DNA of 50,116 nt from Saprospiraceae bacterium (GTDB lineage: Bacteria > Bacteroidota > Bacteroidia > Chitinophagales > Saprospiraceae), in contig JALHRR010000008.1 of NCBI GenBank assembly GCA_022841345.1, positions 96,994-147,109 on the forward strand. The letters run 5' to 3'. Positions 1,745 to 50,116 of this stretch are shown piece after piece. The translations under genes and the position numbers were made by a program. Positions within the stretch are counted from its first letter, which is position 1. The number at the start of each line of letters is the position of its first letter. Under the pieces are notes generated by a model. It searched no databases, had not been told where the DNA came from, and worked only from the letters and a program-made list of their open reading frames with translations.

Positions 1745-2374
1745 ATGGAATCGCTTCTTAAGATCGCTCTCATTCTTCACATTATCGCCGGTATGTCTGC
1801 CTTAGTTTGCGGACTCATTGCATTGTTGCTTCGCAAAGGGAGTTCCGGGCACAAATTGAATGGAAACATATTCTTCTACTCGATGATGGGAGTTGCCATT
1901 ACAGCTTTATTTATTTCAGCATTCAAATCCAATGATTTCCTTTTCTACATTGGACTGTTTTCCTTGTTCATGACCCTAAGTGGGAAAAGAGCCATTCAAA
2001 ATAAAACTTCAACTCCGGGCAAAATTGATATTCTGATTTTAATACTTGGCTTAGGAACAGGAATCTGGATGCTTGCTGAGGCTAATATTGTTTTGCGGGT
2101 ATTCGGAGGACTTTCGCTTTTACTGGCTCTGGGAGATCTCAATGTTTATTATAAAGTGTACAGGAAAATTTCCATTCATGGAAACACCTGGCTAATAAGA
2201 CATATCAGACACATGGTGGGTTCCTATATTTCTACAGCTACTGCATTTCTGGTGGTTAATATTCAGTTCGATCCTGTCTGGATTATGTGGCTCATTCCCA
2301 CCGCCGTTGGAACGCCTGTAATAATTTATTGGATCAGAAAAATCACTCCACAACCAAAAAAGCAATTATCATGA
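1745..2374 (+). CDS. hypothetical integral membrane protein
   Basis: 209-aa ORF with 5-6 predicted TM helices. Confidence 0.5.
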   Translation: MESLLKIALILHIIAGMSALVCGLIALLLRKGSSGHKLNGNIFFYSMMGVAITALFISAFKSNDFLFYIGLFSLFMTLSGKRAIQNKTSTPGKIDILILILGLGTGIWMLAEANIVLRVFGGLSLLLALGDLNVYYKVYRKISIHGNTWLIRHIRHMVGSYISTATAFLVVNIQFDPVWIMWLIPTAVGTPVIIYWIRKITPQPKKQLS

Positions 2375-3615
2375 AGACAGTAATATACAGTACATTACTA
2401 TTTACGATGATGTCTTTTTCCCCGACTGCATGGTCCCAATTGTATGTTGATGGAGGAAAAACCCGTCACAGATTTGCACAAATGCATATCGGAATGGAAA
2501 TGAAAACATTTTCTATTCAAGGTCAAAATCAATCTCTATCTCTAAATGGTGAATGGACAGAATCAAGATTTACAGGACCTGCAGAAGCCAAAATTATTAT
2601 GGGAGGCACTCACTTCTGGGGACATGCAGATTTCTATATTTCCTTTCCGGTTTTTCGGATCGGCAACAAGCAATTTACTTCAGGAGTAGAGACTGCAGCA
2701 CGAATTTTTCCATGGGCTATCAAAAAGGATAAAATCAGGCCCTTTGCAGGTTTTGGACATCTGCCTGTTAGGTTTAAACAAGGTGGTGGAGCAAATGCAA
2801 TCCGGCAAAAACTATTCATTACTACAGGTCTTTCATACCAAAAAGGAAATCACCTCATTGACCTTAATGTGAGTTATTTAACTGGTCCATCTCTGGAATA
2901 TTACTACGCAACCAATTACAAAACAAACACTCAATTACCCCCGATTTCAGTAGGGATTGGATACAGATATTTATTTGATACTACCATTAGTGCTGAAGAA
3001 ACCTGGCAATCCGGAAGAACAAAAATAGTAACAGACACTTTGGCAAAAAGAAAAAAATTAGATGGTTTTACTGTATCTGCAGGACCATCAGTAGCATTCC
3101 ATCTCACTCGATCAGATCGTATGAAAAAGGAATTTGCATATTTGGACAGACATGGGACTTCACAAGTGTTTGCGGATCTTGGATTGGGTTATTACTGGCA
3201 TAAGCCGGACCTACAGGTTAACTTAGCCTATCGGAGTACAAAAGCAGAACAATCAGCATTTGACTATTCGCAATCAATCAAACGCAAATCTCTGGCACTT
3301 GAGTCCTATATTTTCTTCGCTGATTACCACGGATTTGCCCCATTTGCAGGACTAGCCGCAGGACTTGAATGGCTTAATGTAGCAGAAAAATCAAAAGGAA
3401 CAGAAGTCGCTTCGGGACAATTCAGAGGGATAAAGCCCGGGCTTATCTTTGGATGGGATATTCGCCCCAATCGCATCCAAAGCTTTTATCTCCGCACCAA
3501 TCTGCGCTGGTTCCCCAATTTGAAAGTCAATATGCCTGATGGAGGAAATGTTAATCTGGATCAGCTGGAAGTAAATTTTATTCAGCTCGTTGTTTTCCCC
3601 GGAAGAATGTTTTAG
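2371..3615 (+). CDS. outer-membrane beta-barrel protein (porin-like), hypothetical
   Basis: The ORF is called from 2287, but the signal peptide begins at the internal Met ([23 protein letters not shown]) at 2371. It has alternating amphipathic strands and a C-terminal aromatic residue (…FPGRMF), as in OM beta-barrels. Confidence 0.5.
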
Positions 3616-7553: not shown

Positions 7554-7555
7554 AG

Positions 7556-7625
7556 TGATGGGTTATGAATGCTGAATTATGAGTTATGAGTGAAACAGCC
7601 GTTTATGAGAGATAAGGTGTTAAGA
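7556..7625. repeat. copy of the intergenic modular repeat (AGTTATG heptamers + GAAACAGCCG core, reverse orientation)
   Basis: gagttatgagttatgagtgaaacagccg is the reverse complement of the CGGCTGTTCACTCATAACTCATAACTC units seen at 8375-8614 and 37.9-38.4 kb. Confidence 0.6.
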
Positions 7626-7735
7626 AATAAATTTATGTTATGATTGGCAGGTTGAAAAAACGTTTGTTTAGTGTTCTTTGAAAATCGGATCAGATAATAA
7701 ATAACTTCTTCAAATTCAGCTAAACTATTTATAAT

Positions 7736-7890
7736 GGAAGCAATCACAAATAAGGACTAACTTGATGCTTATCTTCGCAGAGCTTATGAGCTGATGCAGA
7801 AAGATTTAAAGCCAAATTCAAAAGAATCTGATGAATTATAACAACTGAGTATAAGCATTGAAAAATATGAGAGAGAAAACCTGGACATGC
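7736..7890 (+). pseudogene. remnant of a HigA-family antitoxin gene (N-terminal segment only)
   Basis: Reads MEAITNKD*LDAYLRRAYELMQKDLKPNSKESDELYQLSISIEKYERENLDMR**. The xPNSxExDELxxLxxLIExYE pattern matches the N-terminal domain of HigA-type antitoxins, but there is an in-frame TAA at codon 9 and no HTH domain follows. Confidence 0.3.
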
Positions 7891-8002
7891 GATGATAATT
7901 CGATTAAAATTGATGTATAAGTTTCCGAATTTATCATCAAATATATATTTTAGGTTTTGAAAGGAAAAGATAAGTCTGAATACTAATATTAAAGCCAATT
8001 TT

Positions 8003-8362
8003 ATGGGAAATTCAATATTAGTAAAAAAATCCTTTCAGTTCGCAATTCTCACGATTAATACTTATAAAGTACTCGTTTCTGTTTCAAAAGAGTATGTCAT
8101 GAGCAGACAATTACTCAAATCCGGAACATCAGTTGGGGCAAATGTTAGAGAGGCTCAAAATGCAGAAAGTAAGTTGGACTTTATTCATAAATTAGCAATA
8201 GCACAGAAAGAATGTGACGAGACCTTATATTGGCTGGAACTTTTATTTGAAACAGATTTTATCCATGAAGATATTTATCATAATTTACACACTGATGCTG
8301 AAGAGTTAATCAAAATGATTAAAAGTGCCATTATAACTACGAAGCAAAACTATTTAAAATGA
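8003..8362 (+). CDS. four-helix-bundle protein (23S rRNA intervening-sequence protein family)
   Basis: 119 aa with the family-typical SGTSVGANVREAQNAESKLDFIHKLAIAQKECDETLYWLEL motif. Confidence 0.8.
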   Translation: MGNSILVKKSFQFAILTINTYKVLVSVSKEYVMSRQLLKSGTSVGANVREAQNAESKLDFIHKLAIAQKECDETLYWLELLFETDFIHEDIYHNLHTDAEELIKMIKSAIITTKQNYLK

Positions 8363-8374
8363 AATTCAAATAAA

Positions 8375-8614
8375 CAGCTATAGTCCACACCGATAACTCC
8401 AACCGGATGTTCACTCATCATCCATAACTCCTAACTCATAACTCCAACTGGCTGTTAATTCATAACTCATAACTCGTAACTCATAACTCCCACCCGGCTG
8501 TTCACTCATCATTCATAACTCATAACTCATAACTCATAACTCATAACTCGTAACTCGTAACTCCAACTGGCTGTTCACTCATCATTCATAACTCATAATT
8601 CATAACTCCACAAC
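8375..8614. repeat. CATAACT heptanucleotide tandem-repeat array (VNTR) interleaved with GGCTGTTCACTCATCATT core units
   Basis: Runs of up to 6 consecutive CATAACT/CGTAACT units, and three blocks repeat the ACTCCAACTGGCTGTT…CATAACTC structure; the array ends directly at the GTG start of the downstream FAH gene. Confidence 0.8.
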
Positions 8615-23344: not shown

Positions 23345-23444
23345 ACACCTCCATTTGAAGGCAAAAGTAACATATTATAATTATTTATAATAAGAATTTT
23401 TGTCTTCCTGGAACCATCCCATTCAATACTTTATGAATTTGTAA

Positions 23445-23850
23445 TTAATCCGCGTCTATAAAACAATCGGCTGCTTTTCCGGCTGTTTTGAATTCTAAAT
23501 TCTGCCTTCTAACTTCTCAAATCTCCCTTTCTTCGATGGTCGTCCCCAAAGCTTTGGGGATGACTTCGATCCAATATTTCATGAATTTGTAATTCATTTA
23601 CGACTAATCCACTTCAACAAACAAATCGGCTGCTTTCCGGCTGTTCCAAATCTGAAAACTGAAACCTGAAATCTGAAATCTCCTATATAACACTTTTGCA
23701 GAACATTGATATTCAATGATTTAAAAAATTCTAAATTCTACCTTCTAAATTCTAAATTTCAGGCCCCGCCGTGTTATCCTTCATCGAATGGTCCCCAAAG
23801 CTTTGGGGACGGGGACTGAAATCTGAAATCAGGACACTGGGAGTGAATGA
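23445..23850. repeat. cluster of modular intergenic repeats (GTCCCCAAAGCTTTGGGGA palindrome, CATGAATTTGTAATTCAT palindrome, CGGCTGCTTT(T)CCGGCTGTT core, CTGAAATCTGAAATC microsatellite)
   Basis: Two copies of the TCCCCAAAGCTTTGGGGA palindrome, at about 23548 and about 23793, plus the same sub-modules found at 37.9-38.1 kb and 47.5-48.1 kb. Confidence 0.75.
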
Positions 23851-25574: not shown

Positions 25575-25735
25575 CAATCTTCACATTTCTGCATTCGCGG
25601 CTTGTCCCCAACGCCTTGGTGGATCGCTACGTTGCACCACTCGCTTTTCGCTCGGTACCCATTTACAACTCCACCACAATGCATTGGCGAAAGGCATGGG
25701 GACTGCCTCCCTTTGGACGGCATGGTTTCACATCT
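25575..25735. repeat. diverged copy of the palindromic intergenic repeat (GTCCCCAACGCCTTGGTGGA variant)
   Basis: Palindrome variant plus the CATGGGGACTGCCTCCCTTTGGACGG segment; overlapped only by short opposite-strand ORFs. Confidence 0.4.
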
Positions 25736-26265
25736 AAAGGCTGATGCAATCCCAACTTAAAAGCAACTATTAGAAAATAGAAATCCTTTGTGAAGTTGCT
25801 ACAATCCCGCCTTAGAGAATAATCCGTAAAAAATGGTTTTGAGTGAAGCGACCAAGGCTGTCACTGTGTGAGCAATATGTGAAGCCGGGCAGATATAGAG
25901 ATGACCTGTGAAAAATAAGCAGGAACAAGTAAGGCCAAAAGCGAGTTTGACAGACTTAGCGAAAGGAAAACGCATTTTTAGGATTAGGCTCTACAGCGGG
26001 AATGGTTTTTGTTTACTTTTTGCCATTTCAAAAAGTAAAAGCCCAGCCGGCTTGAGGCGAATTAGAAGTGCTAAATTCCAAAGTATTTTCAAATGAAGAA
26101 CTGAATACATTTTTTTGAAATAAGATTATCTAACAATATAATAGCCATCTTTCATGACTCTCAAGCTGTTCTTCAAAGCTTAAATATTCGGCCTCGAAGA
26201 AAATAATTCTAAGATATTTTGCTCCAGCTATTGTTTTATTCACAAAAGTGATTTAATCTTGCCAC

Positions 26266-26337
26266 ATGAAAACAAATCAATCTATGACATGTTGTTGTTG
26301 TCGTACTGCTCAGAGAGCGGTCGGGACTATGATGTGA
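26266..26337 (+). CDS. Cys-codon-rich mini-ORF 1 (putative leader peptide MKTNQSMTCCCCRTAQRAVGTMM)
   Basis: 23-codon ORF containing four consecutive Cys codons (TGT×4); its stop lies about 35 nt before an intrinsic terminator, upstream of a cysteine-biosynthesis operon. Confidence 0.4.
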   Translation: MKTNQSMTCCCCRTAQRAVGTMM

Positions 26338-26372
26338 TATAGATTAATACAATAAAATCCAGTTTCACAGAA

Positions 26373-26425: not shown

Positions 26426-26524
26426 ATGAAAATGTTACATAAATCTTCTTGCTGTTGTCGCTGCTGTTGCCCTGACTGGCACACGGACCCTGGAGGTAAG
26501 AGACATGTAATATTTATCGAATAA
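26426..26524 (+). CDS. Cys-codon-rich mini-ORF 2 (putative leader peptide MKMLHKSSCCCRCCCPDWHTDPGGKRHVIFIE)
   Basis: 32-codon ORF with six Cys codons among seven consecutive codons (CCCRCCC); followed about 28 nt later by a second intrinsic terminator. Confidence 0.4.
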   Translation: MKMLHKSSCCCRCCCPDWHTDPGGKRHVIFIE

Positions 26525-30254: not shown

Positions 30255-30292
30255 AAAATGACATGTCCCCAAAGCTTTGGTGGATGACAAAA
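30255..30292. repeat. partial copy of the GTCCCCAAAGCTTTGG palindromic repeat
   Basis: ACATGTCCCCAAAGCTTTGGTGGATGAC matches the repeat core. Confidence 0.5.
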
Positions 30293-36901: not shown

Positions 36902-37417
36902 ATGATCACACTGTTTGATATAAAAATAGAAACTCCTATCGGCATGCTGGAAGCCAGCACTACTGATAATGGAATTTACCGGATTCATTTTTTGGACGAC
37001 ACACCTGACGAAGAAGTTAATCCGATCATCCTCACCAAAAAAGCGGAATCCAGGCATCATGTGCATCCATATCTCCATGAACTTCAAATTCAAATGGAAG
37101 CCTACTTTTCCAGAAAGCAAACGAGTTTTAATCTTCCCCTAGACTTTCAGGGAACTCCTTTCCAGAAAAAAGTTTGGAATGAGTTATTAAAGATTCCATA
37201 CGGTAAAACCCGGTCTTATCTTGAACAAACTAAGGCTCTGGGTGATCCACTTGCGATCAGAGCAGTAGCAAGTGCAAATGGTAAAAATCCTATTGCCATT
37301 GTGGTGCCTTGCCACCGGGTAATTGGTTCTGATGGAAGCCTCACAGGATATGCTGGTGGATTGCAGAGGAAGAGGTGGTTGCTGGATTTTGAGTTTGGAC
37401 AGATGAGTATGTTGTGA
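36902..37417 (+). CDS. ogt: methylated-DNA--protein-cysteine methyltransferase
   Basis: Active-site motif VPCHRVIGSDGSLTGY (PCHRV). Confidence 0.9.
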   Translation: MITLFDIKIETPIGMLEASTTDNGIYRIHFLDDTPDEEVNPIILTKKAESRHHVHPYLHELQIQMEAYFSRKQTSFNLPLDFQGTPFQKKVWNELLKIPYGKTRSYLEQTKALGDPLAIRAVASANGKNPIAIVVPCHRVIGSDGSLTGYAGGLQRKRWLLDFEFGQMSML

Positions 37418-37519
37418 TAAATTCAGCTAGTCCTACTGTTCTTAAGTCGACAACTTTGCAGTATCGCTTTGATATAAGCTTCTTTTACTTTTGTCTTGAT
37501 ACAAAAGTAACAATCCCCT

Positions 37520-37545
37520 CCCCAAAGCTTTGGGGATTGGGGACA
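37520..37545. repeat. palindromic repeat copy TCCCCAAAGCTTTGGGGATTGGGGACAAGG
   Basis: Exact match to the palindrome core. Confidence 0.6.
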
Positions 37546-37864
37546 AGGCTGTTTAAACTTTCCTTGTTTTCTACGCTGATCTCCACCCAGCGCATGCAAA
37601 GCCGCTCGCCTATTAGTTTCTGTTGTGGATTTAAGAAGTTTTTATCAGAACAAAATCTGGCGAGGGACGAAACTCTCTCCTTAGCTCGACTTCTGTGCCT
37701 GCTTGCTAGAGTAATCAGTGTTGCCTCCTCAGAGCGCTCGAGAGACCGAGCTTCTTCGTCGGTTCGCTTCCTTGTAAAGTACATTTAGTACTTTCCTGCG
37801 TCGCTCATGGAAATTTTAAAAGGCCAAATAAAACCGCCCTCAAAAGCCGATGGTCTAAGTCTGT

Positions 37865-38395
37865 GACTTAGATCCCATAAATCATGAATTTGTAATTCAT
37901 CTACGACACATCCACCTCTTAAAACAAAATGGCTGTTAACTCATCATTCATAACTCCCCCAGCTGTTCACTTAGACCTGATCCTTTATACCTTATGCCTT
38001 CTTTGAAATCTTAATACTCCGATGGTCGTCCCCAAAGCTTTGGGGAGCGACTTCGATCCAATATCTCATGAATTTGCAATTCATCTACGACACATCCACT
38101 TCTACATACCCATCGGCTGTTATTGGCTGTTGCCGGCTGATTACTAAACTTCTAATCTTCTAAACTCCTCGACTAATCTCCCCCATAACTCCCACTGGCT
38201 GTTCACTTATGCCTAATGCCTTACACCTTATTCCAGTAGTTCTCATCTCTCATATCTGGCTGTGTTTCACTCATCATTCACCGCGAGGTTCCGCTTTGCT
38301 TCACTACGAGGTCCTGCGGATAACTCATCATTCATAACTCCGCCCCGTCTGTCATCTCATCTCTTATCTCTCATCTCTAAATACCTCTTCTGAAT
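37865..38395. repeat. two consecutive copies of the modular intergenic repeat (CATGAATTTG(T/C)AATTCATCTACGAC palindrome, GTCCCCAAAGCTTTGGGGA, GGCTGTT…CATAACTC modules)
   Basis: 37870-37990 and 38030-38150 share about 90% identity in the palindrome + ATCATGAATTTG…CATCTACGACACATCCAC segment; heptamer-type units (TCATAACTCC) recur at 37950 and 38330. Confidence 0.75.
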
Positions 38396-38418: not shown

Positions 38419-39318
38419 ATGAAACCACAGCTTCCAGAGGAAAAGAGTTTGAGTACGTTTGCTGCATGGCTGGCATTGCTGGCAATAGGTGCAACATGGG
38501 GGAGCAGTTATTATGTTATTAAGAAGGCATTGCTGGCGTTCGAGCCCTCGCAGATAGCGGCGATGAGGGTGAGTATTGCTTTTATATGTTTCCTGCCTAT
38601 GCTGTTTCTCAACCGAAAGAAAATTCAAAGAAAGCATATCAAGTATCTTATAATCGTTGGCGTTTGTGGAAGCGGGCTTCCCGCCATTTTATTTCCGCTG
38701 GCACAGACGCAGTTGACCAGCAGTTTTACGGGGATCTTGAGTTCAAGTACTCCGATTTTTACATTGAGTATTGGGGCTTTATTTTTCGGATTGATGCTTT
38801 CCAGGAGCAAATTAATTGGCGTACTTATAGGATTTGCTGGTGCAATTATGTTAGCTATTTTTTCTGGAAGCGGCGAAATCAGTGGAAATCCGTGGTATGC
38901 TTTGCTTGTATTACTTGCTACTGCATTTTACGGAATCAGCACAAACACCATCAATACATTTCTGAAGGAACTGGACACATTTACGATCAGTTCTTTTGCA
39001 TTTATGGTTATAGGAATTCCATCAATAATATATCTGTTCTCGGGTGATTTTGTGCATACTTTGACCACACATCCACAAGGTTGGTATTCATTTACACATG
39101 TTGCGATATTGGCGGTGGCAGGTACTTTTTTAGCTACTTTGTTTTTCTTTCAATTGATCAAATCCGCCGGAGTTGTATTTGCCTCAACCGTGAGTTATAT
39201 CATACCATGTGTAGCAGTTTTGCTGGGATTCCTGGATGGAGAGACGCTCAGTTTCTGGCATTTGATTGGAATGAGTTTGATTATTTGGGGAGTTTATATG
39301 ACGAGCAGAAGAACCTAA
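38419..39318 (+). CDS. DMT-superfamily (EamA-like) transporter
   Basis: 299 aa, 10 TM helices, duplicated EamA-domain architecture. Confidence 0.8.
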   Translation: MKPQLPEEKSLSTFAAWLALLAIGATWGSSYYVIKKALLAFEPSQIAAMRVSIAFICFLPMLFLNRKKIQRKHIKYLIIVGVCGSGLPAILFPLAQTQLTSSFTGILSSSTPIFTLSIGALFFGLMLSRSKLIGVLIGFAGAIMLAIFSGSGEISGNPWYALLVLLATAFYGISTNTINTFLKELDTFTISSFAFMVIGIPSIIYLFSGDFVHTLTTHPQGWYSFTHVAILAVAGTFLATLFFFQLIKSAGVVFASTVSYIIPCVAVLLGFLDGETLSFWHLIGMSLIIWGVYMTSRRT

Positions 39319-39400
39319 GATTTTAGGTTTCAGTTTTCAGATTTTAGATTTTAGATTTTAGATTTGAAACAGCCGTATTTAATTGAAAGTTGAAAGTTGA
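39318..39400. repeat. microsatellite/repeat copy (TTTAGAT×4, GAAACAGCCG, GAAAGTT×2)
   Basis: tttcagttttcagattttagattttagattttagatttgaaacagccg mirrors the repeat modules at 49925+. Confidence 0.6.
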
Positions 39401-39478: not shown

Positions 39479-39682
39479 TTAATGGAGTTGTTTCCCTACC
39501 TCTATACAGATATCTAAATAGTCATCTACTGCCTCCTCAAAAGCTGTTTTTAATAAATCTGATGAGTTAGCTTCATAGGTTATCAAGTCATTTATTCCTT
39601 CAATTTTCCCATAAAAGACTCCATCTTCTTCAGAAAAATTTACCGACCCGATAAATTCCTTGTAATTGATTGTGTCGTTCAT
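39479..39682 (-). CDS. HicB-like antitoxin N-terminal domain protein (short, orphan)
   Basis: The 67-aa ORF has the HicB N-domain pattern (YKEFIGSVNFSEEDGVFYGKIEGINDLITYEANSSDLLKTAFEEAVDDYL) but lacks the C-terminal DNA-binding domain, and no hicA is adjacent. Confidence 0.45.
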   Translation of the reverse strand: MNDTINYKEFIGSVNFSEEDGVFYGKIEGINDLITYEANSSDLLKTAFEEAVDDYLDICIEVGKQLH

Positions 39683-39764: not shown

Positions 39765-39835
39765 AAAATTGGCTGTTGCATAGGCTGCTGGCTGTTTCAT
39801 TCGCCAATTCGCCAATTCACCAATTCGCTAATTTG
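39765..39835. repeat. GGCTGTT core + GCCAATTC×4 tandem octamer
   Basis: ggctgttgcataggctgctggctgtttcattcgccaattcgccaattcaccaattcgctaatt. Confidence 0.5.
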
Positions 39836-40238: not shown

Positions 40239-40328
40239 ATCTGATATTATTTTGCCTCAAGATAAGACACTGAAGCAAATACCTCCCAGAGATTCAGTAA
40301 AATCAACTCAAAAATCAGTATTTTCTGA

Positions 40329-41195
40329 TTATTGCCCTACTATGAGCTTTGTTGTTGCAGACTTTGCACCGGAAGTAGCCTGCATAATATATATTCCGGG
40401 AATCCATACTGAAACATCGGTTGTAAGGATCTCTCCGGGACTCAGCACTTTTTGTAGAATGACAGCTCCCATCATATTATAAAATGTGAGATGAATTTTT
40501 TCATTGATCCCACTATACTCGACAATATATTGATCTTTGGCAGGATTGGGGTAAGTTCTGATATTTACTTTTGCCAGCTCGGTGGTACTGAGAGTTATAC
40601 ATTCAAAGTCAAACTCAACAATTGGAAAATCCTGAACCTCATAACTTAGTAATGGACCTGTACCCGGATCGCAAACCGGACTCATTGGAAAGAAACACCT
40701 TGTTGAACCAAAATCTTCAATCATAATTTCTCCCCATTCCGCCCAGTGCTCATTATTCTCTGATGCAATTGTATTGATATATTGAATTATTTTGTCTTCT
40801 CCATTGAAGTTGATAATTCCGACTGAGTCAATCCCTACATAAATTGTGTCAAATTCATTTCTAACAACTTTTAAGGTATCGCCTGCCTGTAATGAAAAGT
40901 CATAAAGCAAATACTTGACATCATCCCTGTAATAGTAAATCTTATCCTCCTCCTTTCTGATATAACGGGGAGATATATCTCCACATGTGCAATCCCCTGC
41001 AATGACAAAAGCTTGTTCACCATTAATCAGAGTATCGCCTGTGATTTGAATTGTCTTTAATGTGTTGAAAGGAAAGCCAATATGTATCTGACAATAAGTC
41101 CATTCTGTCCCTAAGCCCAATTCAAATGATTGTGCGTTTACATTGTAATTAAAGAATAAAAATGCAGCAAAAATTAAGGGTAAAATTTGTCTCAT
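40329..41195 (-). CDS. secreted protein with type IX secretion system C-terminal sorting domain
   Basis: N-terminal signal peptide (MRQILPLIFAAFLFFNYNVNAQS); the C-terminal ~80 aa match a T9SS CTD (…VWIPGIYIMQATSGAKSATTKLIVGQ). Confidence 0.75.
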   Translation of the reverse strand: MRQILPLIFAAFLFFNYNVNAQSFELGLGTEWTYCQIHIGFPFNTLKTIQITGDTLINGEQAFVIAGDCTCGDISPRYIRKEEDKIYYYRDDVKYLLYDFSLQAGDTLKVVRNEFDTIYVGIDSVGIINFNGEDKIIQYINTIASENNEHWAEWGEIMIEDFGSTRCFFPMSPVCDPGTGPLLSYEVQDFPIVEFDFECITLSTTELAKVNIRTYPNPAKDQYIVEYSGINEKIHLTFYNMMGAVILQKVLSPGEILTTDVSVWIPGIYIMQATSGAKSATTKLIVGQ

Positions 41196-41322
41196 AAGGC
41201 AGGTTTTTAGAAAAAGGATTGAAGTATGTGTATCTAAAATACTCCATTAATTCTAAATCTGCTGCGTAAAAACAAATTAAAATAAAAAATTTAACATTTT
41301 CCTCAACCTTAACCCTCCATCC

Positions 41323-43798: not shown

Positions 43799-45058
43799 TT
43801 ACCCGCGAATAATTTCTACAGGATCCACCTTCGCCGCCTTTCTTGAAGGAAACCAACCTGCAAACAGCGTAGTAACCACTCCGAAAACGATCCCAAGTGT
43901 ATAATGGAAGGGTTTAAAATTAACAGGGAATGTGTCAATATTGATAAAATCATTTTGCGGAAATGGCACCTGATTAATACCTGAACTAAAAATAAATCCC
44001 AGTAATAAACCCAGTATTCCACCAAGGCATCCAATGATCATGGATTGATACAGGAAAATCTTGCTCACATCTGAACCTTCGAAACCCGTCGCTTTCAAAA
44101 TGGCAATATCCCTCATCTTATTGATGATATTCATATTCATGATATTATAAATCCCAAAACCTGCAACGATCAACATAGTAATGGACACCACATAAGTCAT
44201 AGTATTCCTTATGATTTCTCCCACCAAAACTGCTTCGTTTGCGGTCTCCCAATCCTCCGCTTTGTAGCCGTAAGATTCTTCCAGTCTGACTCCCAGATTC
44301 TTCGCTTCATTGTAATCCTTCATCTTGATATGAATATCCGTGATATAGGAAGGATCAACCTGCAATAACTTTTGAACTGTTGAAATAGAGGCATAGCTTC
44401 GGGAATCATCAATCGCTCCCATTCCGAAAGCAAAAATCCCCATCACTCTGAAAAAAAATGTCTGCCCTTCAGGTGTAGTAAGCGATACTCTGTCACCGAC
44501 TGATGCTCCTAATTTTTTCGCCAGGCCCAGACCCATTAGTATTCCATCCTGATATGTCAGGAGATCTGTAATATTTCCTTCAATCATTTTCTCTGTCAGA
44601 TTGTATAGTTCATTTTCTTTCAGAATATCTGTACCTACAACCATACCGGGGAATTTCACAGGCCCATTGTTGTAAAACACTTGAGAAGAGACTTGAGAAA
44701 GCGCTCCTGATACTTCCGGCAATGAACTGATTTCTTCCAGAATTATATGGCCATCTTTCAGTTTAGGCAGTTCGTTTTTGGGCTTCGGATGATGCAGAAC
44801 CGTCATCCGGGCACTTGCAGCAAATGAATCCATTGCTACAGTCTTATTCTCAATCGGATGATAAATCTTGACATGGGGTGAACCGTCCAGTGTCAGTTCC
44901 ATCATAAACTCATTGACTCCGGTCATGAAGCTGATCATCGTAATGAACATAGAAATTCCGAATGTCACACCCATCATGGCGACAAATGTCTGCTTCTTTT
45001 TGGACAGCAAATGCGTCAAAGCAATATCCAGATTGACTGATTTTTTAAATAGTCGCAT
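43799..45058 (-). CDS. ABC transporter permease, FtsX/MacB-type with large periplasmic domain
   Basis: 419 aa; an N-terminal TM helix, a ~250-aa periplasmic domain, then three C-terminal TM helices with an FtsX fold. Confidence 0.85.
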   Translation of the reverse strand: MRLFKKSVNLDIALTHLLSKKKQTFVAMMGVTFGISMFITMISFMTGVNEFMMELTLDGSPHVKIYHPIENKTVAMDSFAASARMTVLHHPKPKNELPKLKDGHIILEEISSLPEVSGALSQVSSQVFYNNGPVKFPGMVVGTDILKENELYNLTEKMIEGNITDLLTYQDGILMGLGLAKKLGASVGDRVSLTTPEGQTFFFRVMGIFAFGMGAIDDSRSYASISTVQKLLQVDPSYITDIHIKMKDYNEAKNLGVRLEESYGYKAEDWETANEAVLVGEIIRNTMTYVVSITMLIVAGFGIYNIMNMNIINKMRDIAILKATGFEGSDVSKIFLYQSMIIGCLGGILGLLLGFIFSSGINQVPFPQNDFINIDTFPVNFKPFHYTLGIVFGVVTTLFAGWFPSRKAAKVDPVEIIRG

Positions 45059-45064
45059 ACGGAA

Positions 45065-46171
45065 TTATTTTAATATGATTTCATCATCTTCCAGCAAGCC
45101 TTCTACGATCTCAACTCTGTCCACATTCCGGATGCCGGTGACAACGTGGATAGTTGTGTCCGTTCCTTTTCTTTTTATCTTCAGGCTGTCTCCATTTTGC
45201 AATGCCTGACGTGGAATGGTGAGCACAGAAGGTTTTGAATCGATGAGAATATTTGCCTCCAGATTCAGACCATAGATACCTTTCTGCAAAGGTTCATCAA
45301 AAACAGCTTCAGCATAAAATGATTGCTCGGCGCGATTCAACTTGGGTAATATTCGTGATATTTTTCCTTTAAATGTTTTGCCCGGAAACGCATCCAGCTG
45401 AATGAAGACTGATTGTCCTTCAGTGACTCTGCTGAAATCTCTCTCATCAATTGTCAGGCGGGCTATCCAGTTGTCTTTCAATCCTCCCAGAGCAATGGGT
45501 TCATTTACATTGACACGTTCACCATTTTTCTTATAGATTTCAAAAATCACCCCATCCATAGCTCCTTTCACTTGTCCGTCAATATTCTGTGCCTGTAAGG
45601 TACGGTATTGATTCTCCGCTTGCTGAGATTCCATTTTGGTCTGAAGGAGAATGTTTTGTTTTTGTGTTTGCAATCCCATCCATTCATTTTTGGAGGCATC
45701 CCATTGAAGTTTTGCTCTTTCCCATTCAGACTTAGCCACTGCATCTTTTGCAAGTAATGCGTCAAGGCGTGAGAATTGCAGACTGTCGTTTGCTTTTTTC
45801 GAGGCAGCCGTTTTTATTCTGATATCCAATTCCTGCAGGGCAGGTGATTCTGACCCGGCTCTTGTACGGGCAGTTTCATAGATATTTCCCAGTAAACCTT
45901 CCTGTACTTTGCGGGTATTGGTTTCTATTCTAAACAACGGCTGACCTTTGCGGAAAGAATCATTTTCAATGACAAGCGACTGCACCAGGATGCCGTCGGT
46001 ATTGGCAAAGATTTTGTATTCCTGCCCGGGAATAAGCATACCTGAAGCATAAACAGCCTCAGCTATTTCAGTGCGTTCGGGTAAAATTGTTTCCTGTTTT
46101 GTTCCGCAGCTGAATAATAGTAATGGCATCAAAAATGCCGGGATAAGAAGTTTACAATTGAAGTAATGCAT
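45065..46171 (-). CDS. efflux periplasmic adaptor (membrane fusion protein, HlyD/MacA family)
   Basis: Lipoprotein-like N-terminus, long coiled-coil hairpin and a C-terminal beta-barrel domain. Confidence 0.85.
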   Translation of the reverse strand: MHYFNCKLLIPAFLMPLLLFSCGTKQETILPERTEIAEAVYASGMLIPGQEYKIFANTDGILVQSLVIENDSFRKGQPLFRIETNTRKVQEGLLGNIYETARTRAGSESPALQELDIRIKTAASKKANDSLQFSRLDALLAKDAVAKSEWERAKLQWDASKNEWMGLQTQKQNILLQTKMESQQAENQYRTLQAQNIDGQVKGAMDGVIFEIYKKNGERVNVNEPIALGGLKDNWIARLTIDERDFSRVTEGQSVFIQLDAFPGKTFKGKISRILPKLNRAEQSFYAEAVFDEPLQKGIYGLNLEANILIDSKPSVLTIPRQALQNGDSLKIKRKGTDTTIHVVTGIRNVDRVEIVEGLLEDDEIILK

Positions 46172-47447
46172 GATACAAATGCAAGTTTAGTCGGTTTTGA
46201 AAAAATGCCTGAGCGGCAGAGCTATAGTCCTGATAGACCTGAAAATATTCATCCAATGGGCTGTAACCTTCATTGAGTCTTAGCAATGCAAGTTCGAGGT
46301 TATTTTGAGTCAACTCAAATCTGCGGGTAGTAATTTCATAATTGGCCTGAGCTTCATTCAGAGATGAGGACCACTGAGCAATTTGAGAACCAGCTTCCCG
46401 AATGGTGTTGTCATATTGATATTGAGATTGCTTTAATTGGATGTTGGCTTTCTCCATCTGACGATGTTTCAAACCTCCGGAGAAAATTTGCCATTGTAAA
46501 CTAAGCCCTACTGTTCCATAATCGAATCCTATATACTGGCTACCATCAAACAGATCGCCGCTCTGCCATTGAAACTGGTAGCGGCCAACTGCGGAGAGCG
46601 TAGGATACAAGCCGGCTTTACGGGCATTTACTTTTGAAATCGACCAGTCTTTTTGTGCCTGAGCGAGCAATACAGCGGGTCTTCGTGAAGCTTCGGTTTG
46701 AGACGGATCAGTCAACAGCATTTGATTCAGGCTATCAGTGATGATGATTTGCTGATCTTCCGGAATTTGAAGGCTTGCTTTCAATTGCAAATAAGCCATT
46801 TCCTTTTGGTGGGTTGCATCTACAATTTGCTGATAAATTTGCTGACGAAGCGCCTCTACTCTGTTCAAGTCAAATGCTGAGATGATAGATTGTTCTTTTT
46901 TATCCTCAGCCACTCTGTAAAGTGAATCCGCCTGAGAGCGAAGTTCAGTCAGGTATGGCAGATAAGCTTCCCAAAATAAAGCCTGATAATATCTCTGCAA
47001 CACCGTGCTTTTCAATTGTTCCAGCTCCAATTTTTCTCTTAAAGGACCTTGAGTGGCTGCAATGCGTGCGGATTGAATGTCTCTCCATTTTTCAATCTGA
47101 ATGAGAGGCCATTGAATATCAATGCCGGCTCCCAATACCCATGGCTGGCCAAACTGAACTCTTTGAAAGGTTCCCGGAGGACCTCCAAAAATCTCTGCCG
47201 GAATTAGCTGAACCGGTAGATTGAGATTATAATCAGCATTGCTGTTGAGTCTCACTGTGGGCCACATACCGGCTTTTTGAATGCCAATCTCATTGTTCAA
47301 TTCTTCAGATTGAGAAGCAACAAGTTTGACTTTCGAATGCTGGGTTTCCAACAATCGGTAAGCATCATCCAGTGACTGGAATGTCACCTGAGCACTCAGA
47401 TTATGCTGAATCAAAAAACACAATGCAATTAATGTCCAAATCTTCAT
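46152..47447 (-). CDS. TolC-family outer-membrane efflux protein
   Basis: 431 aa with a signal peptide and duplicated OEP repeats. Confidence 0.85.
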   Translation of the reverse strand: MKIWTLIALCFLIQHNLSAQVTFQSLDDAYRLLETQHSKVKLVASQSEELNNEIGIQKAGMWPTVRLNSNADYNLNLPVQLIPAEIFGGPPGTFQRVQFGQPWVLGAGIDIQWPLIQIEKWRDIQSARIAATQGPLREKLELEQLKSTVLQRYYQALFWEAYLPYLTELRSQADSLYRVAEDKKEQSIISAFDLNRVEALRQQIYQQIVDATHQKEMAYLQLKASLQIPEDQQIIITDSLNQMLLTDPSQTEASRRPAVLLAQAQKDWSISKVNARKAGLYPTLSAVGRYQFQWQSGDLFDGSQYIGFDYGTVGLSLQWQIFSGGLKHRQMEKANIQLKQSQYQYDNTIREAGSQIAQWSSSLNEAQANYEITTRRFELTQNNLELALLRLNEGYSPLDEYFQVYQDYSSAAQAFFQNRLNLHLYHALLQL

Positions 47448-47539
47448 CGCAGTAAATTTTAATAAGTGGTTCAGACCACTCTAATTGTGAGCCAAAGTTA
47501 TCATCGTGTAAGCTATAAAAATCGGTGGAAATATGGAAG

Positions 47540-48078
47540 CCGCGGAAATGAGCGCTGAAGCGGAGAAAAATGCAGGGAAGCGGAGAGAGGGGTGGTAATA
47601 ATCGTAATGTGGAATCAATTTTTTTCGCTCCTCCACAGGAAAGCAAAGATTTGAGATTTCAGTCCCCAAAGCTTTGGGGATCAGTAGTTTCAGATTTCAG
47701 ATTGAACAGCCGAATAGCAGCCGATTTTTTTGTACGGATCAGATATTTCGTAGATGAATTTAAAATTCATGAAATATGGGATCGAAGTTATAAACTTCGA
47801 CCATCGGGGGCCGCGGAAATGAGAGCTGAAGCGGAAGAAAATGCAGGGAAACGGTGGGAATCTAGGTAGTAATTGTATTATTAAAGGAACTTGTTGCTCT
47901 TCAACAGGAAAGCAATGATCAGATTTCAGGTTTCAGTCCTAAAAGCTTTGGGGATCAGATTTCAGATTGAACAGCCGAATAGCAGCCGATTTTTTTGTAT
48001 GGATCGGATATTTCGGAGATGAATTAAAAATTCATGAAATATGGGATCGAAGTTATAAACTTCGACCTTCGGGGACCT
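47540..48078. repeat. tandem duplication (2 × ~270 bp) of a composite palindromic repeat unit
   Basis: Unit 1 spans 47540-47810 and unit 2 spans 47811-48078. Each unit carries CCGCGGAAATGAG(C/A)GCTGAAGCGGA…GTCC(C/T)(C/A)AAAGCTTTGGGGATCAG…GATTGAACAGCCGAATAGCAGCCGATTTTTTTGTA…GATGAATT(T/A)AAAATTCATGAAATATGGGATCGAAGTTATAAACTTCGACC(A/T)TCGGGG. The units are about 90% identical and contain four internal palindromes. Confidence 0.85.
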
Positions 48079-48359
48079 CAGGCAATGGCAGTAGAAGTGG
48101 AAAATAAGGGTAGGGAGCAGAGCAAAGATCATCTTATATTCGCCTTTCCGAACACGATTCGAAAAATTAAGACTTATTCAAATATGAATGTCGTATGTTA
48201 GAAGGGGTTACTATAAACCAGCTTATTGATTTATTATATCTTTATCAGCTTCATTGAATGAAGAACATGAAAATCAAATTATAAGGTAATCTAAATTCAG
48301 AAAATGAAGTTTTGAATTACCCCACCAATAGTTTTTAATCCATCATAGAATCTCAGCTT

Positions 48360-48950
48360 ATGAGTATACATCAACCATTTTCAAGGCGCTTCTTCCTCAA
48401 GACCACTTCCTTCACTGCTGCACTGGCATTTATACCCAAAGGTGTCAGGTCGATATATGAAGAGGTGAAGAGATTTATCGTCCCTGCTAAAGACGTGATT
48501 CCTTTAAAGGTTTCTATCAATAAAAAAGAGTACTCCATCCAGGCGGATACACGTACGACTTTGCTGGATCTGCTTAGAGAAGATTTGCAACTTACGGGCA
48601 CCAAGAAAGGATGTGATCACGGGCAATGTGGCGCTTGCACAGTGCATATAGATGGCGAAAGAGCATTGAGCTGTTTGACGCTGGCAGCTATGATTCCCGG
48701 CAAAGAAATTACCACTATAGAAGGACTTGCAGATGGAGACAAATTACATCCCATGCAGGAAGCATTTCTCGAGTGTGATGGCTTTCAGTGTGGGTATTGT
48801 ACGCCCGGACAGATCATGTCTGCTGTATCCTGTGTGAAGGAAGGTCATACAGGATCAGTCTCCGAAATCAAAGAATTCATGAGCGGTAATTTGTGTCGTT
48901 GCGGAGCTTACAACGGCATTGTTGAATCCATTCAAAAAGTAGCAAAATGA
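48360..48950 (+). CDS. (2Fe-2S)-binding small subunit of a xanthine-dehydrogenase-family molybdoenzyme, Tat-exported (PaoA-like)
   Basis: Tat signal (RRFFLKTTSFTAALAF); plant-type ferredoxin cluster (CDHGQCGACTV) and a second 4-Cys cluster (CGYCTPG…CRCGAY). Confidence 0.85.
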   Translation: MSIHQPFSRRFFLKTTSFTAALAFIPKGVRSIYEEVKRFIVPAKDVIPLKVSINKKEYSIQADTRTTLLDLLREDLQLTGTKKGCDHGQCGACTVHIDGERALSCLTLAAMIPGKEITTIEGLADGDKLHPMQEAFLECDGFQCGYCTPGQIMSAVSCVKEGHTGSVSEIKEFMSGNLCRCGAYNGIVESIQKVAK

Positions 48951-49927
48951 GACCATTTACATTTAACAAAGCCGAAAGCATTCATAAAGCATTGTCGGGA
49001 AGAAAGGTAACTGCTCAGTATATCGCAGGCGGAACGAACCTGCTGGACCTGATGAAAAAACATATTTCCCAGCCGGAATCATTGGTGGATGTCACATCAG
49101 TGCTTTCAAATAAAATTGAAACTGATAAAAAGGGTATCAGCATAGGTGCTATGGTACGCAACAGTGCACTGACTCTTGACAAAAACATATTAGATGATTT
49201 CCCTCTGCTGGCAAAAGCAATTCTGGCCGGAGCTTCTCCGCAGATCAGAAACATGGCTTCTACCGGAGGCAATATATTGCAACGGACTCGTTGTCCCTAC
49301 TTTTATGATGTCACGACGCCCTGCAATAAGAGAAATCCCGGAAGTGGCTGCAGCGCAATTAAAGGTGAAAATCGAATGAGTGCCATTGTAGGATACAGTG
49401 AACAATGCGTTGCTGTACATCCATCAGATATGAGTGTGGCATTGGCGGCATTGGATGCAAATGTGCTCATCATTGATAAAAATCAAAAAGAGCAAATTAT
49501 CCCCTTCAAAGACTTTCACAGATTGCCGGGAGACAGGCCGGAACTGGACAATAATCTTCCGCCAGGAGCGCTGATACAGTCGATCGAAATACCCCGAAAC
49601 GCATTCGCAAAAAACTGTGCATATCTCAAGGTCAGAGACAGGGATTCGTATGCATTTGCATTGGTATCGGTAGCGGCAGCTTTGGAATTATCGGGAGGAA
49701 AAATCAGAGCGGCAAGACTGGCATCCGGTGGAGTGGCCCACAAACCCTGGCGATGGTATGAAGCGGAGGAGTTTTTAAAAGGCAAGGAAGCGAATATTAA
49801 GAATTTTGAAGAGGCAGCTGAAATAGCGTTGAAAGGAGTTAAGCCTTTGTCGGGGAATGGATTTAAGGGGCCGATGCTGAAGGGGGCGATTGTGACGGGG
49901 TTGAAACAGTGCGTAGAAATGCAATAG
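48947..49927 (+). CDS. FAD-binding medium subunit of molybdopterin dehydrogenase (PaoB/CoxM-like)
   Basis: FAD_binding_5 domain (AGGTNLLDLMK) and the CO-dehydrogenase flavoprotein C-domain; the large Mo subunit is expected beyond the window end. Confidence 0.82.
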   Translation: MRPFTFNKAESIHKALSGRKVTAQYIAGGTNLLDLMKKHISQPESLVDVTSVLSNKIETDKKGISIGAMVRNSALTLDKNILDDFPLLAKAILAGASPQIRNMASTGGNILQRTRCPYFYDVTTPCNKRNPGSGCSAIKGENRMSAIVGYSEQCVAVHPSDMSVALAALDANVLIIDKNQKEQIIPFKDFHRLPGDRPELDNNLPPGALIQSIEIPRNAFAKNCAYLKVRDRDSYAFALVSVAAALELSGGKIRAARLASGGVAHKPWRWYEAEEFLKGKEANIKNFEEAAEIALKGVKPLSGNGFKGPMLKGAIVTGLKQCVEMQ

Positions 49928-50116
49928 ATTTCAGTTTTCAGATGTCAGTTTTCAGATTTTAGATTTGGAACAGCCGTAGCAGCCGATATTTTGTAAAGGG
50001 TGAATTTGTCGTAGACTTCGTTTGTAGGGAGTCGTTTGGTGGAGGTGTTTAGAAGTTTAGGATACAGCCTGATAGCAGCCGAATGGTTTATAGAAGTGAA
50101 TATGTCGTAGATTAAT
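49925..50116. repeat. repeat copy at window edge (TTTCAGA microsatellite, GGAACAGCCGTAGCAGCCGAT core ×2)
   Basis: tttcagttttcagatgtcagttttcagattttagatttggaacagccgtagcagccgat… and …gatagcagccgaatgg, matching the 47.7/48.0 kb units. Confidence 0.65.

Follow-up and report, generated by a model that had tools for sequence, protein, structure and literature searches.

A tandem intergenic dimer and its REP/BIME-like mosaic repeat family in a Saprospiraceae bacterium

Described repeat systems and the family in the window

Here we describe a tandem dimer of an intergenic repeat, and the repeat family from which it is built, in the genome of a Saprospiraceae bacterium (GenBank assembly GCA_022841345.1, contig JALHRR010000008.1, positions 96,994 to 147,109); the whole stretch of 50,116 nucleotides analyzed is referred to as the window. 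We consider it probable that the dimer is a resident mosaic repeat, similar to the repetitive extragenic palindromes (REP) and bacterial interspersed mosaic elements (BIME), which was duplicated by unequal recombination or slippage between the direct repeats, termed L, that flank it. Several described systems are close enough for comparison. The Nostocales reportedly carry short tandemly repeated repetitive (STRR) sequences made of tandem heptamers, together with small dispersed repeats (SDR, types 1-8), hairpins of ~20-30 nt that are said to be 'very small mobile elements' and to be confined to a cyanobacterial subgroup. The BOX elements of Streptococcus pneumoniae are composed of boxA-boxB(n)-boxC, with a boxB of 45 nt. 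In REPs, an unpaired GTAG or GTGG lies 0-2 nt 5' of the hairpin foot (PMC6006769, PMC3733652), and head-to-tail REP dimers are rare (PMC3733652). A genome with REPs has tens to thousands of copies, and the gene of the cognate transposase, of the Y1 HUH type, is flanked by them. The system of inverted REP dimers (REPIN) and REP-associated tyrosine transposases (RAYT) is found in Enterobacteria and Pseudomonas (PMC3733652; Quentin et al., 2018, PMC6006769), and GTAG-type REPs were not reported from Bacteroidetes in a 2013 survey (Di Nocera et al., 2013, PMC3733652).

The family in the window is a mosaic of three modules, namely anchored 7-mer microsatellites, a core of ~110 nt, and C4AAAGCTTTG4 mini-palindromes, of which the 18-mer TCCCCAAAGCTTTGGGGA is referred to as palindrome (a). 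In the microsatellite module, a 7-mer run abuts an AACAGCC(G-N3-5-AGCAGCCGAT) anchor, and the 7-mer varies by site (AGATTTC, CATAACT, ATTCGCCA, CTAAACTT, and others). The core contains GTAG directly 5' of a hairpin of 7 bp with a 3-nt loop (ATGAATT-N3-AATTCAT), followed by a terminal hairpin (GGTCG...CGAYC) whose tip varies between copies: at the dimer the core ends in a hairpin closed by GGATCG…CGACCATCGG, and other core copies have TCTAAGTCACAGACTTAGA, TCGTACCCAAAGCTTTGGGTACGA, or palindrome (a) itself in the tip. An earlier note on this DNA had counted the palindrome TCGAAGTTATAAACTTCGA among the modules of the family. It is instead one variant of the terminal hairpin, confined to the two dimer units; different palindromes are found in L077 and L078, two of the four contigs from genus-level relatives that carry the family (L076-L079), and in copies C, D, and E of the eight core copies (A-H) in the window.

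The family resembles REPs and BIMEs in being extragenic in either orientation, in combining a small hairpin with conserved linker motifs, and in lying often just past stop codons. Moreover, it shares with GTAG-type REPs the unpaired GTAG, placed at the 5' foot of a stem of 7 bp whose loop has 3 nt; GTAG precedes ATGAATT in 7 of 12 copies, the rest having GTAA (2), GGAG, GCGG, and TTAG. The hairpin falls within the REP range (stem of 7-20 nt, loop of 2-5 nt) and is intact in 8 of the 10 aligned copies, each of the remaining two having one mismatch in the stem. Hairpin units and linker motifs form an extragenic mosaic, as they do in BIMEs. However, REP hairpins have G or C in at least three of the first four stem bases, whereas ATGA has one of four; the four pairs of cores in the window are all head-to-tail and not inverted (HH/TT) as in REPINs; and the units of a cluster share one orientation rather than alternating as in BIMEs. 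The conserved unit is also longer (~110 nt as compared with 20-40 nt in REPs) and has microsatellite arms, and, unlike in REPIN-RAYT systems, no RAYT is linked to the family.

Like BOX elements, the family is modular and intergenic, has a variable tandem internal module and hairpins, and encodes no transposase; it differs in sequence and host, and its internal repeat is a 7-mer or a unit of 45-73 nt rather than the 45-nt boxB. The likeness to STRR/SDR lies in tandem heptamers of several sequence types in intergenic DNA, and in hairpins of ~20-30 nt nested in heptamer arrays and in the hairpins of larger repeats, in some cases within copies of themselves, with presence/absence differences. Embedding of this kind was found in the heptamer array at 47663, in terminal hairpins at 23543 and 38029, in the nested palindrome at 37519, and in polymorphic copies of another Saprospiraceae repeat (L012, L027, and L049). 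The phylum (Bacteroidota) and the sequences are different, and the heptamers here are anchored on a fixed AACAGCC; strict membership of STRR/SDR is unlikely because the host belongs to the Saprospiraceae. The STRR/SDR work (Elhai et al., 2008, Genome Res 18:1484) is cited in PMC3116915. Miniature inverted-repeat transposable elements (MITE), such as Correia/NEMIS and Nezha, are likewise small, non-coding, dispersed, and intergenic, but in the family terminal inverted repeats, a short target-site duplication, and a parent insertion sequence (IS) are all lacking, and identity between copies is low. By analogy, the family seems to work most like REP/BIME clusters, and its nested architecture may also be likened to that of STRR/SDR. 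As it departs from both canonical REPINs and MITEs, we place it in no named family and file it as a new lineage-specific bacterial interspersed mosaic repeat.

The tandem dimer and its origin

Direct reading of positions 47200-48400 gives two head-to-tail units in one divergent spacer, with a TolC-like outer-membrane gene on one side and a paoA-like Fe-S subunit gene on the other. The ~270-bp duplication that the earlier note had placed at 47540-48078 was recovered by reading, MAFFT, BLAST, and a repeat finder alike. Its estimate of ~90% identity between units agrees with the mean column identity of 90% in the MAFFT alignment (47536-47806 against 47807-48080), but the identity is uneven, with 77% in the left parts and 96% in the right cores. 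BLAST of unit 1 against unit 2 gave 82% including gaps (E 5e-77 to 3e-79), and the repeat finder separated a left part with a period of 271 nt and 75% identity from a right part with a period of 265 nt and 95% identity. Between core copies A and B, identity is 93% when the whole aligned copy is counted and 95% within the conserved core. Each unit is ordered as an L motif (…GCTGAAGCGGAAGAAAATGCAGGGAAGCGG), ~65 nt of local sequence, (AGATTTC)n interrupted by palindrome (a), AACAGCCGAATAGCAGCCGAT, and the ~110-nt core. The unit had been taken to be dispersed as a whole; its right ~150 nt (heptamers, AACAGCC...AGCAGCCGAT, and core) does recur in the window, but the left ~110 nt is local spacer with no second BLAST match anywhere in the window.

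With left parts that share only 77% identity, the dimer is not recent; we infer an old duplication with faster drift in one left part. The left part of unit 2 is 83% identical to the relative L077, that of unit 1 only 72%, and the right cores of both units match L077 at only 82-84%. The recent amplification suggested in the earlier note is therefore not borne out: the left halves are 23% diverged, and the monomer and empty alleles in relatives point to a local duplication between direct repeats.

For these alleles, we compared related Saprospiraceae contigs that are 83-88% identical in the flanking genes. L078 belongs to a Saprospiraceae metagenome-assembled genome (MAG; GCA_016706365.1) whose FAD-subunit protein is 86% identical, and a scan of metagenome contigs with the core hairpin found three loci, including L076 and L077; the RF3 gene is 74% nucleotide-identical to that of another Saprospiraceae MAG. 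The comparison of syntenic loci, which had been proposed as a check, gave a monomer in L077 and L078 and an empty site in L079. L077 (82.7% identical over 3.5 kb) has one unit, local left part included. L078 (~83% identical), the only monomer relative whose contig reaches both sides of the unit, has one unit bracketed by L copies (…GTTGAAGCGGAAGAAAATGCAGGGAAGCAG at 8708 and …GTTGAAGCGGAAGAAAATAAAGGGAAGCAG at 9157). L079, at 88% identity in HlyD and OEP, has only one L and lacks the sequence, termed R, that lies between L copies elsewhere, with conserved promoter-proximal sequence on both sides. In the monomer relatives R measures ~215-400 nt and occurs once, and filled and empty alleles differ by one 30-55-nt repeat copy. 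The window has the pattern L1-R1-L2-R2, followed by a degenerate L3 that is orthologous to the right-hand L' of L078. Because L-R-L', L-R-L-R-L', and a single L are all seen, exchange between L repeats accounts for the dimer better than transposition does. From a parental L-R-L', exchange of L with L' would give the duplication L-R-L-R-L', and the same exchange would give the deletion allele of L079, through either unequal homologous recombination or replication slippage. Later gene conversion would probably have held the right cores at 96% while the left parts drifted to 77%. Moreover, in L077 and L078 two (AGATTTC)n-AACAGCC modules enclose a further ~115 nt that the window lacks, so that events of this kind also occur inside the unit. 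Taken alone, this duplication step by unequal recombination or slippage between L repeats is, in our judgment, likely.

It is less clear how the family first spread. We suggest, tentatively, that its copies may have moved in the manner of REPs, namely as single-stranded hairpins on which a RAYT/IS200-type HUH tyrosine transposase acted in trans. The GTAG directly 5' of the hairpin in 7 of the 12 copies is in line with this, and RAYT subclasses 2.4 and 2.6 are common in Bacteroidetes, subclass 2.6 being associated with 'atypical' hairpins (PMC6006769).

Several points weigh against the reading of a resident REP/BIME-like repeat duplicated between L repeats. With regard to its spread, no RAYT, Y1, or other transposase was found in the window or in ~65 kb of related loci (L078, L079, L089), and where typical REPs have a GC-rich foot and pair up in inverted orientation (PMC3733652, PMC6006769), the foot here is rich in AT and each of the four pairs of copies runs head-to-tail. 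The abundance of the family in the genome is extrapolated from the ~115 kb formed by the window and these related loci. As for the duplication, L2 is like L1 along nearly its whole length, which places the exchange point at the extreme edge of the L homology, and slippage at microhomology fits equally well. The polarity of L079 rests on pairwise distances. In HlyD and OEP, no two loci are closer to each other than the window and L079, and L077 stands farthest from the rest, so that the most parsimonious course is a filled ancestral state with loss of R in L079; this is favored rather than proven, because the distances are discordant across the spacer. On its left (44196-47447) the window is 88% identical to L079 and 84% to L078, and on its right (48360-49927, the Fer2/FAD side) 79% to L079 and 85% to L078. 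In view of this discordance, recombination has probably had a breakpoint at, or close to, the spacer that holds the repeats, and insertion of R with a long flanking duplication would be the less likely alternative.

Other explanations have to be weighed against these data. An active MITE-like element, recently amplified, with the dimer formed by two adjacent insertions, would account for the many intergenic copies in both orientations, for copy D, which lies with its ~370-nt block in the window and not in L078, and for the one copy on the non-syntenic metagenome contig L076. We hold it to be improbable, and for the dimer it is already largely refuted. The 5-nt CCGAT/ATCGG that closes the core is the only terminal inverted repeat, short of a 10-bp minimum, and neither a transposase nor an IS was found in the sampled DNA. 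Between filled and empty sites there is no short target-site duplication (2-10 bp), the flanks being 30-55-nt direct repeats present once at the empty site. Moreover, the left ~110 nt of the units is local sequence common to orthologous monomers, relatives have most of the copies at orthologous positions, and identity among copies other than the dimer units is only 57-84%, so the MITE-like character that the earlier note had considered is not sustained. The pattern of L-R-L' against a single L is also exactly that of integration and excision at attachment (att) sites, and tandem arrays are typical of att-site elements; R could then be a miniature integrative element with L and L' as attL- and attR-like sites and a recombinase acting in trans, L079 representing precise excision and the dimer tandem integration. 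This is very improbable, given that there is no recombinase nearby, that the L motif occurs nowhere else in the window, that other copies of the family have no L-like flanks, and that L and L' have already diverged; homologous recombination is simpler. That the dimer is an assembly artefact is scarcely credible. Short-read contigs of the same species do break inside the repeats, but the units differ at ~10-18% of positions and by three indels, unlike a collapsed or doubled repeat, and the junction L2 is a coherent copy of L1.

The REPs of E. coli have been proposed to act as RNA stabilizers, processing sites, or terminators, and the elements described here might likewise be functional RNA elements of 3' untranslated regions and operon spacers, kept by selection, with the dimer as a neutral by-product. 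In keeping with this, heptamer runs overlap the upstream same-strand stop codon or start within 7 nt of it across species (at the gene ends of TrpRS, EamA, the FAD subunit, and a GAF kinase), the hairpins fold better than shuffled sequence (z -1.4 to -4.0), G.U pairs form on one strand only (CGGCUG/CGGCUG and GGUCG/CGAUC), and between species the core has kept about the same level of conservation as the genes beside it. We nevertheless regard it as unlikely. Copies lie in either orientation to the neighboring genes and some are upstream of start codons (8399-8608, 37843-38390, 47640-48080); R is dispensable, being absent from L079; and the dimer has no terminator-like site, a promoter (sigma-70) and terminator scan of it giving nothing above the shuffled background. 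The consensus fold keeps the 7-bp hairpin, which is invariant and without covariation, and the 5-bp base of the terminal hairpin, with one compensatory event in all. Rfam gave no match at the gathering score and none on the repeats at E up to 1, the only two sub-threshold matches lying off the repeats at 12.3 and 42.3 kb. Conservation of primary sequence and not of pairing would rather suit arrays of protein-binding sites, in which GGCTG(T/C)T repeats 10-11 bp apart on one helix face would be bound by a nucleoid-associated or regulatory protein, and the 7-3-7 palindrome ATGAATT-N3-AATTCAT would be a putative dimer operator. GGCTGTT occurs three times with a 10-bp period at 38113-38139 and twice 11 bp apart in AACAGCCGAATAGCAGCCGAT, and E. 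coli BIMEs bind IHF and gyrase (PMC6006769). This, too, deserves little credence, as it lacks a candidate protein, copies are no less frequent at 3' ends than at promoters, and L079 is without the element while its flanking promoter-proximal sequences are unchanged. A coding role for the repeats was rejected: copy B is interrupted by a stop at its third codon, the frame is not the same from copy to copy, and the open reading frames (ORF) of the dimer have no Pfam match.

Census, distribution, and the mini-palindrome

The modules are dense in the window, as the earlier note had stated. Palindrome (a), with up to three mismatches, has 7 sites as compared with 0.05 expected from shuffled sequence, CATGAATTTGTAATTCAT has 8 (0.36 expected), and AACAGCC has 21 (5.4 expected); seven of the 21 GGCTGTT sites are followed by a 7- or 8-nt periodic run, against 0.45% of random positions. 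TRF found period-7 arrays at 7554, 8423, 23648, 23726, 39318, 47688, and 49926. A core profile built from 10 copies and searched with nhmmer recovered the eight copies of the window and four more in relatives (two in L078 and one each in L077 and L076). The copies in the window always form same-orientation pairs (H+C, E+D, A+B, and F+G), in spacers at 23.4-23.65, 37.84-38.13, 47.7-48.08, and 49.97-50.12 kb, and are accompanied by ~15 intergenic AACAGCC modules in the 50 kb; relatives have further modules beyond the range of the window (L078 at 15.8 kb, L079 at 16.7 kb, and L076). Core paralogs are 57-80% identical and orthologs 76-85%. All sites listed in the earlier note are indeed intergenic, falling between ORFs with Pfam or NCBIfam support, but the supposed copy at 25575-25735 has a degenerate palindrome (a) and nothing else of the family. 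The window itself is ordinary chromosome of ~40% G+C, with genes for fumarase, TrpRS, PRPP synthetase, L25, Adk, Obg, SSB, and RF3 and no tRNA genes. The coordinates are collected in Table 1.

The core and the GGCTGTT plus microsatellite module were found neither in L080 and L081, from a relative with an amino-acid identity of 75%, nor at eight further Saprospiraceae MAG loci, and the family is therefore roughly genus-wide, which agrees with the lineage-specific, modular REP/BIME-like family that had been supposed. Likewise, it appears not to have been formally described: the repeats had no match in plasmid and phage collections, and a literature search that included the palindrome gave no description of the family. 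The concatenated core translations of all copies had no match in a set of 5.8 billion proteins. In viral contigs, two patterns had no match and the anchor pattern had 59, which look like chance because none has an adjoining heptamer run or core. Modules occupy orthologous sites in two or three species past the EamA, FAD-subunit, and TrpRS stop codons, before the FAA-hydrolase start codon, and at copy E, and the family thus seems old and mostly static, with copies at orthologous sites in species that are ~83-88% identical. The changes that were seen are duplication/deletion between its own direct repeats, swaps of hairpin tips, and gain or loss of mini-palindromes; at one orthologous site, the same GCTGTTCA is followed by different microsatellites in different species. 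Overall, the earlier reading stands as far as a REP/BIME-like intergenic family is concerned and falls as regards a MITE and recent amplification. Short-read Logan contigs of the same species (99.7% identity; L001, L082-L088) all end inside repeats (at window ~23801, 25820, 48038, and 8.5 kb), so that the repeats fragment short-read assemblies of the lineage.

The mini-palindrome (18-31 nt) sits inside a microsatellite, in the tip of a terminal hairpin, or alone. In the heptamer run of the dimer, removing 22 nt around palindrome (a) restores a perfect AGGTTTC-AGATTTC register, and in copies C and D palindrome (a) forms the tip of the terminal hairpin. A ~250-nt repeat of two other Saprospiraceae MAGs is present in three copies (L012, L027, and L049) that differ by insertions of 30 and 31 nt, which have the form CCTG-C7-9-AAAGCWTT-G6-TGG and of which one lies in a hairpin loop. 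We take the mini-palindrome to be a separate insertion-like element. The exact 18-mer TCCCCAAAGCTTTGGGGA was found at more than 73 loci in a species-representative genome set (596 Gb), with ~9 expected by chance on our own arithmetic. At least 45 loci with TCCCCAAAGCTTTGGGGA are in a Phototrophicaceae (Chloroflexota) MAG (OZ241335.1), at the center of an unrelated GC-rich repeat (…CCCCACCCCCGGCCCC, palindrome, GGGGAG…). In a Nostoc MAG it is the midpoint of a perfect palindrome of 50 nt, Psychroflexus and Mesohalobacter have it at the center of GACCTCACAG…CTGTGAGGTC hairpins, and in Saprospiraceae and Marinoscillum it lies in hairpin tips; the tiny palindrome thus recurs across phyla, as the loci in Chloroflexota, Nostoc, Psychroflexus, and Mesohalobacter indicate. 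The window also has, at 37485-37540, a hairpin ACTTTTGT-CTTGAT-ACAAAAGT followed by AACAA and palindrome (a), which is shared with the ~250-nt Saprospiraceae repeat, and Psychroflexus (L042, L065) has similar hairpin-plus-palindrome pairs. Sequences adjoining palindrome (a) at 37560-37790 and 25620-25660 (…CTACGCTGATCTCC…GCCGCTCGCC… and …TCGCTACGTTGCACCACTCGCTTTTCGCTCGGTACC…) resemble positions 5461-5520 of L044, from a Saprospiraceae MAG. ORFs called over 37414-37788 had no Pfam match.

Table 1. Features of the dimer, of the repeat family, and of related loci (window positions unless a locus is named)
Feature	Position	Strand	Remarks
L1, first copy of the 30-55-nt direct repeat (…GCCGCGGAAATGAGCGCTGAAGCGGAGAAAAATGCAGGGAAGCGG) bounding the duplicated unit	47527..47583	+	alignment with L078, L079
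Unit 1 (L1 + R1)	47539..47809	+	reading, MAFFT, repeat finder, BLAST
Local, non-dispersed left part of R1	47584..47645	+	present in L077, L078; absent from L079
(AGATTTC)n run of unit 1	47647..47703	+	interrupted by palindrome (a)
Palindrome (a) in unit 1	47663..47680	.	mutated copy in unit 2 at 47937-47954
Core copy A, ~110 nt	47702..47814	+	nhmmer E 9e-29
Anchor AACAGCCGAATAGCAGCCGAT	47705..47725	+	CAGCCGA directly repeated 11 nt apart; unit 2 copy 47970-47990
GTAG-footed hairpin, unit 1	47750..47770	+	GTAG + ATGAATT-TAA-AATTCAT
Terminal hairpin variant TCGAAGTTATAAACTTCGA, unit 1	47782..47800	.	unit 2 copy 48047-48065
L2, second L copy	47806..47853	+	at unit junction; alignment of L copies
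Unit 2 (L2 + R2)	47810..48074	+	reading, MAFFT, repeat finder, BLAST
Local left part of R2	47854-47918		matches that of R1
Core copy B, unit 2	47967-48079		nhmmer E 1e-28
Hairpin in unit 2	48015-48035		GGAG + ATGAATT-AAA-AATTCAT
L3, degenerate third L copy (…GTAGAAGTGGAAAATAAGGGTAGGGAGCAG)	48071..48121	+	after unit 2; aligned with right-hand L' of L078
(AGTTATG)n + AACAGCC	7554..7600	+	1 nt past TrpRS stop codon; left inverted arm of putative IVP cassette
Four tandem GGCTGTT + (CATAACT)n units, spacing 45-73 nt	8399..8608	-	right inverted arm of putative IVP cassette; ends 7 nt before FAA-hydrolase start codon; kept in L089
Core copy H	23404..23490	-	without terminal hairpin; E 6e-13
Core copy C + AACAGCC anchor + (AGATTTC)n	23529..23681	-	E 3e-32; palindrome (a) nested in terminal hairpin, 23543-23560
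Stand-alone palindrome (a)	23792..23809	.	
Palindrome (a), 2 mismatches	30266-30283		
Palindrome (a) nested in a second C4/G4 palindrome	37519-37536		
Core copy E	37843..37939	-	ortholog in L078 at 214-310
Additional GGCTGTT + 7/8-mer modules	37925..38390	-	
Core copy D	38013..38131	-	palindrome (a) at 38029-38046; inside ~370-nt block, ~38000-38385, absent from L078
(AGATTTT)n + AAACAGCC	39318..39374	+	from EamA stop codon; kept in L078, L079
GGCTGTT-GGCTGCT-GGCTGTT + (ATTCGCCA)n	39771..39835	-	40 nt past DUF4260 stop codon; in L079, not L078
Heptamer run, then AACAGCCGTAGCAGCCGAT and two partial cores	49925..50116	+	starts on FAD-subunit stop codon
Partial core F	49966-50015		
Partial core G	50063-50116		cut by window end
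Homologues of the hairpin at 37485-37540	L012 5107-5155; L027 769-820; L049 6795-6860		
Example loci of TCCCCAAAGCTTTGGGGA	L029 38-7787; L020 7136; L007 6606		among L002-L074
IVP loci	window 7554-8608; L151 9752-10497; L152 9904-10499; L089 9625-10594		

A putative IVP cassette, neighboring features, and significance

Some of the heptamer modules flank a gene. A four-helix-bundle gene at 8003-8362 (PF05635, '23S rRNA IVS protein'), here called the IVP gene, is bracketed by inverted heptamer-module repeats of 33-42 nt that are 76-85% complementary. Two independent homologues (67% and 62% identical) in polysaccharide gene clusters of other Bacteroidota have CATAACT-type inverted flanking arrays, 73% complementary over 48 nt in one locus and judged by eye in the other, which begin at the upstream stop codon and leave at most 6 nt before the next start codon, as compared with 7 nt for the array of the window. 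Three independent loci in Bacteroidota share this layout, with left arms of AGTTATG or GATGAAT and right arms of CATAACT. From its layout, the IVP gene with its heptamer arms looks like a small gene cassette, and a literature search found no description of a heptamer-flanked IVP cassette. A 67-aa ORF at 39479-39682 (minus strand) also lies between inverted AACAGCC modules (39318-39374 and 39771-39835) and is kept in L078 and L079; a HicB-like identity, considered by eye, was rejected since it has no Pfam match.

Other features of the window were noted in passing. A non-coding segment of ~280 nt upstream of RF3 (25805-26081) has a 77% identical counterpart in L089 (6583-6864), placed between fumarase and yceD, two genes that only 94 nt separate in the window. 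This second, unrelated dispersed element ends in the hairpin TACTTTTTGCCATTTCAAAAAGTA. Two tandem small ORFs rich in Cys codons, at 26267-26338 (MKTNQSMTCCCCRTAQ…) and 26427-26511 (MKMLHKSSCCCRCCCPDW…), precede an AhpC-PALP-JAB-ThiS-ThiF cluster, and after each comes a G+C hairpin with a T-run; they look like putative Cys-sensing leader-peptide attenuators for a sulfur-carrier cysteine pathway. A Por_Secre_tail gene at 40329-41195 (region 40269-41316) is present in L079 and absent from L078, and positions 2349-3611, most of a 442-aa ORF (2287-3615) without a Pfam match, have no match in L089, in which a radical-SAM gene pair is inserted after the FAA hydrolase. The long poly-G, poly-C, and poly-A runs at L078 1-120, opposite 37.6-37.8 kb of the window, are probably a local long-read assembly or polishing artefact.

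It is conceivable, if doubtful, that these observations belong together and that the clade carries a nested system of micro-mobile DNA independent of cyanobacterial STRR/SDR. In such a system, C4AAAGCTTTG4 hairpins of 18-31 nt would insert into hairpin loops and microsatellites; the heptamer arrays would be the inverted termini of small cassettes, such as that of the IVP gene, and not plain slippage products; the cassettes would lodge precisely in the gap that separates a stop codon from the start codon after it; and with the GTAG-footed core, a GTAG-type REP family would for the first time be linked to a RAYT of Bacteroidota.

The dimer itself is of small significance, though it provides a clean natural case of direct repeats giving rise to duplication and deletion alleles in sister lineages. 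The family to which it belongs is a fairly ordinary kind of bacterial genome feature and of moderate interest, in that it combines REP/BIME-like and STRR/SDR-like nested micro-repeats in Bacteroidota, where such families have barely been described, and its repeats break short-read assemblies of an abundant activated-sludge lineage. The arrays that abut stop and start codons and lie inverted around four-helix-bundle genes offer a lead on the spread of 'orphan' genes and heptamer repeats, and the observation of the putative IVP cassette may be worth more than the finding of the dimer.

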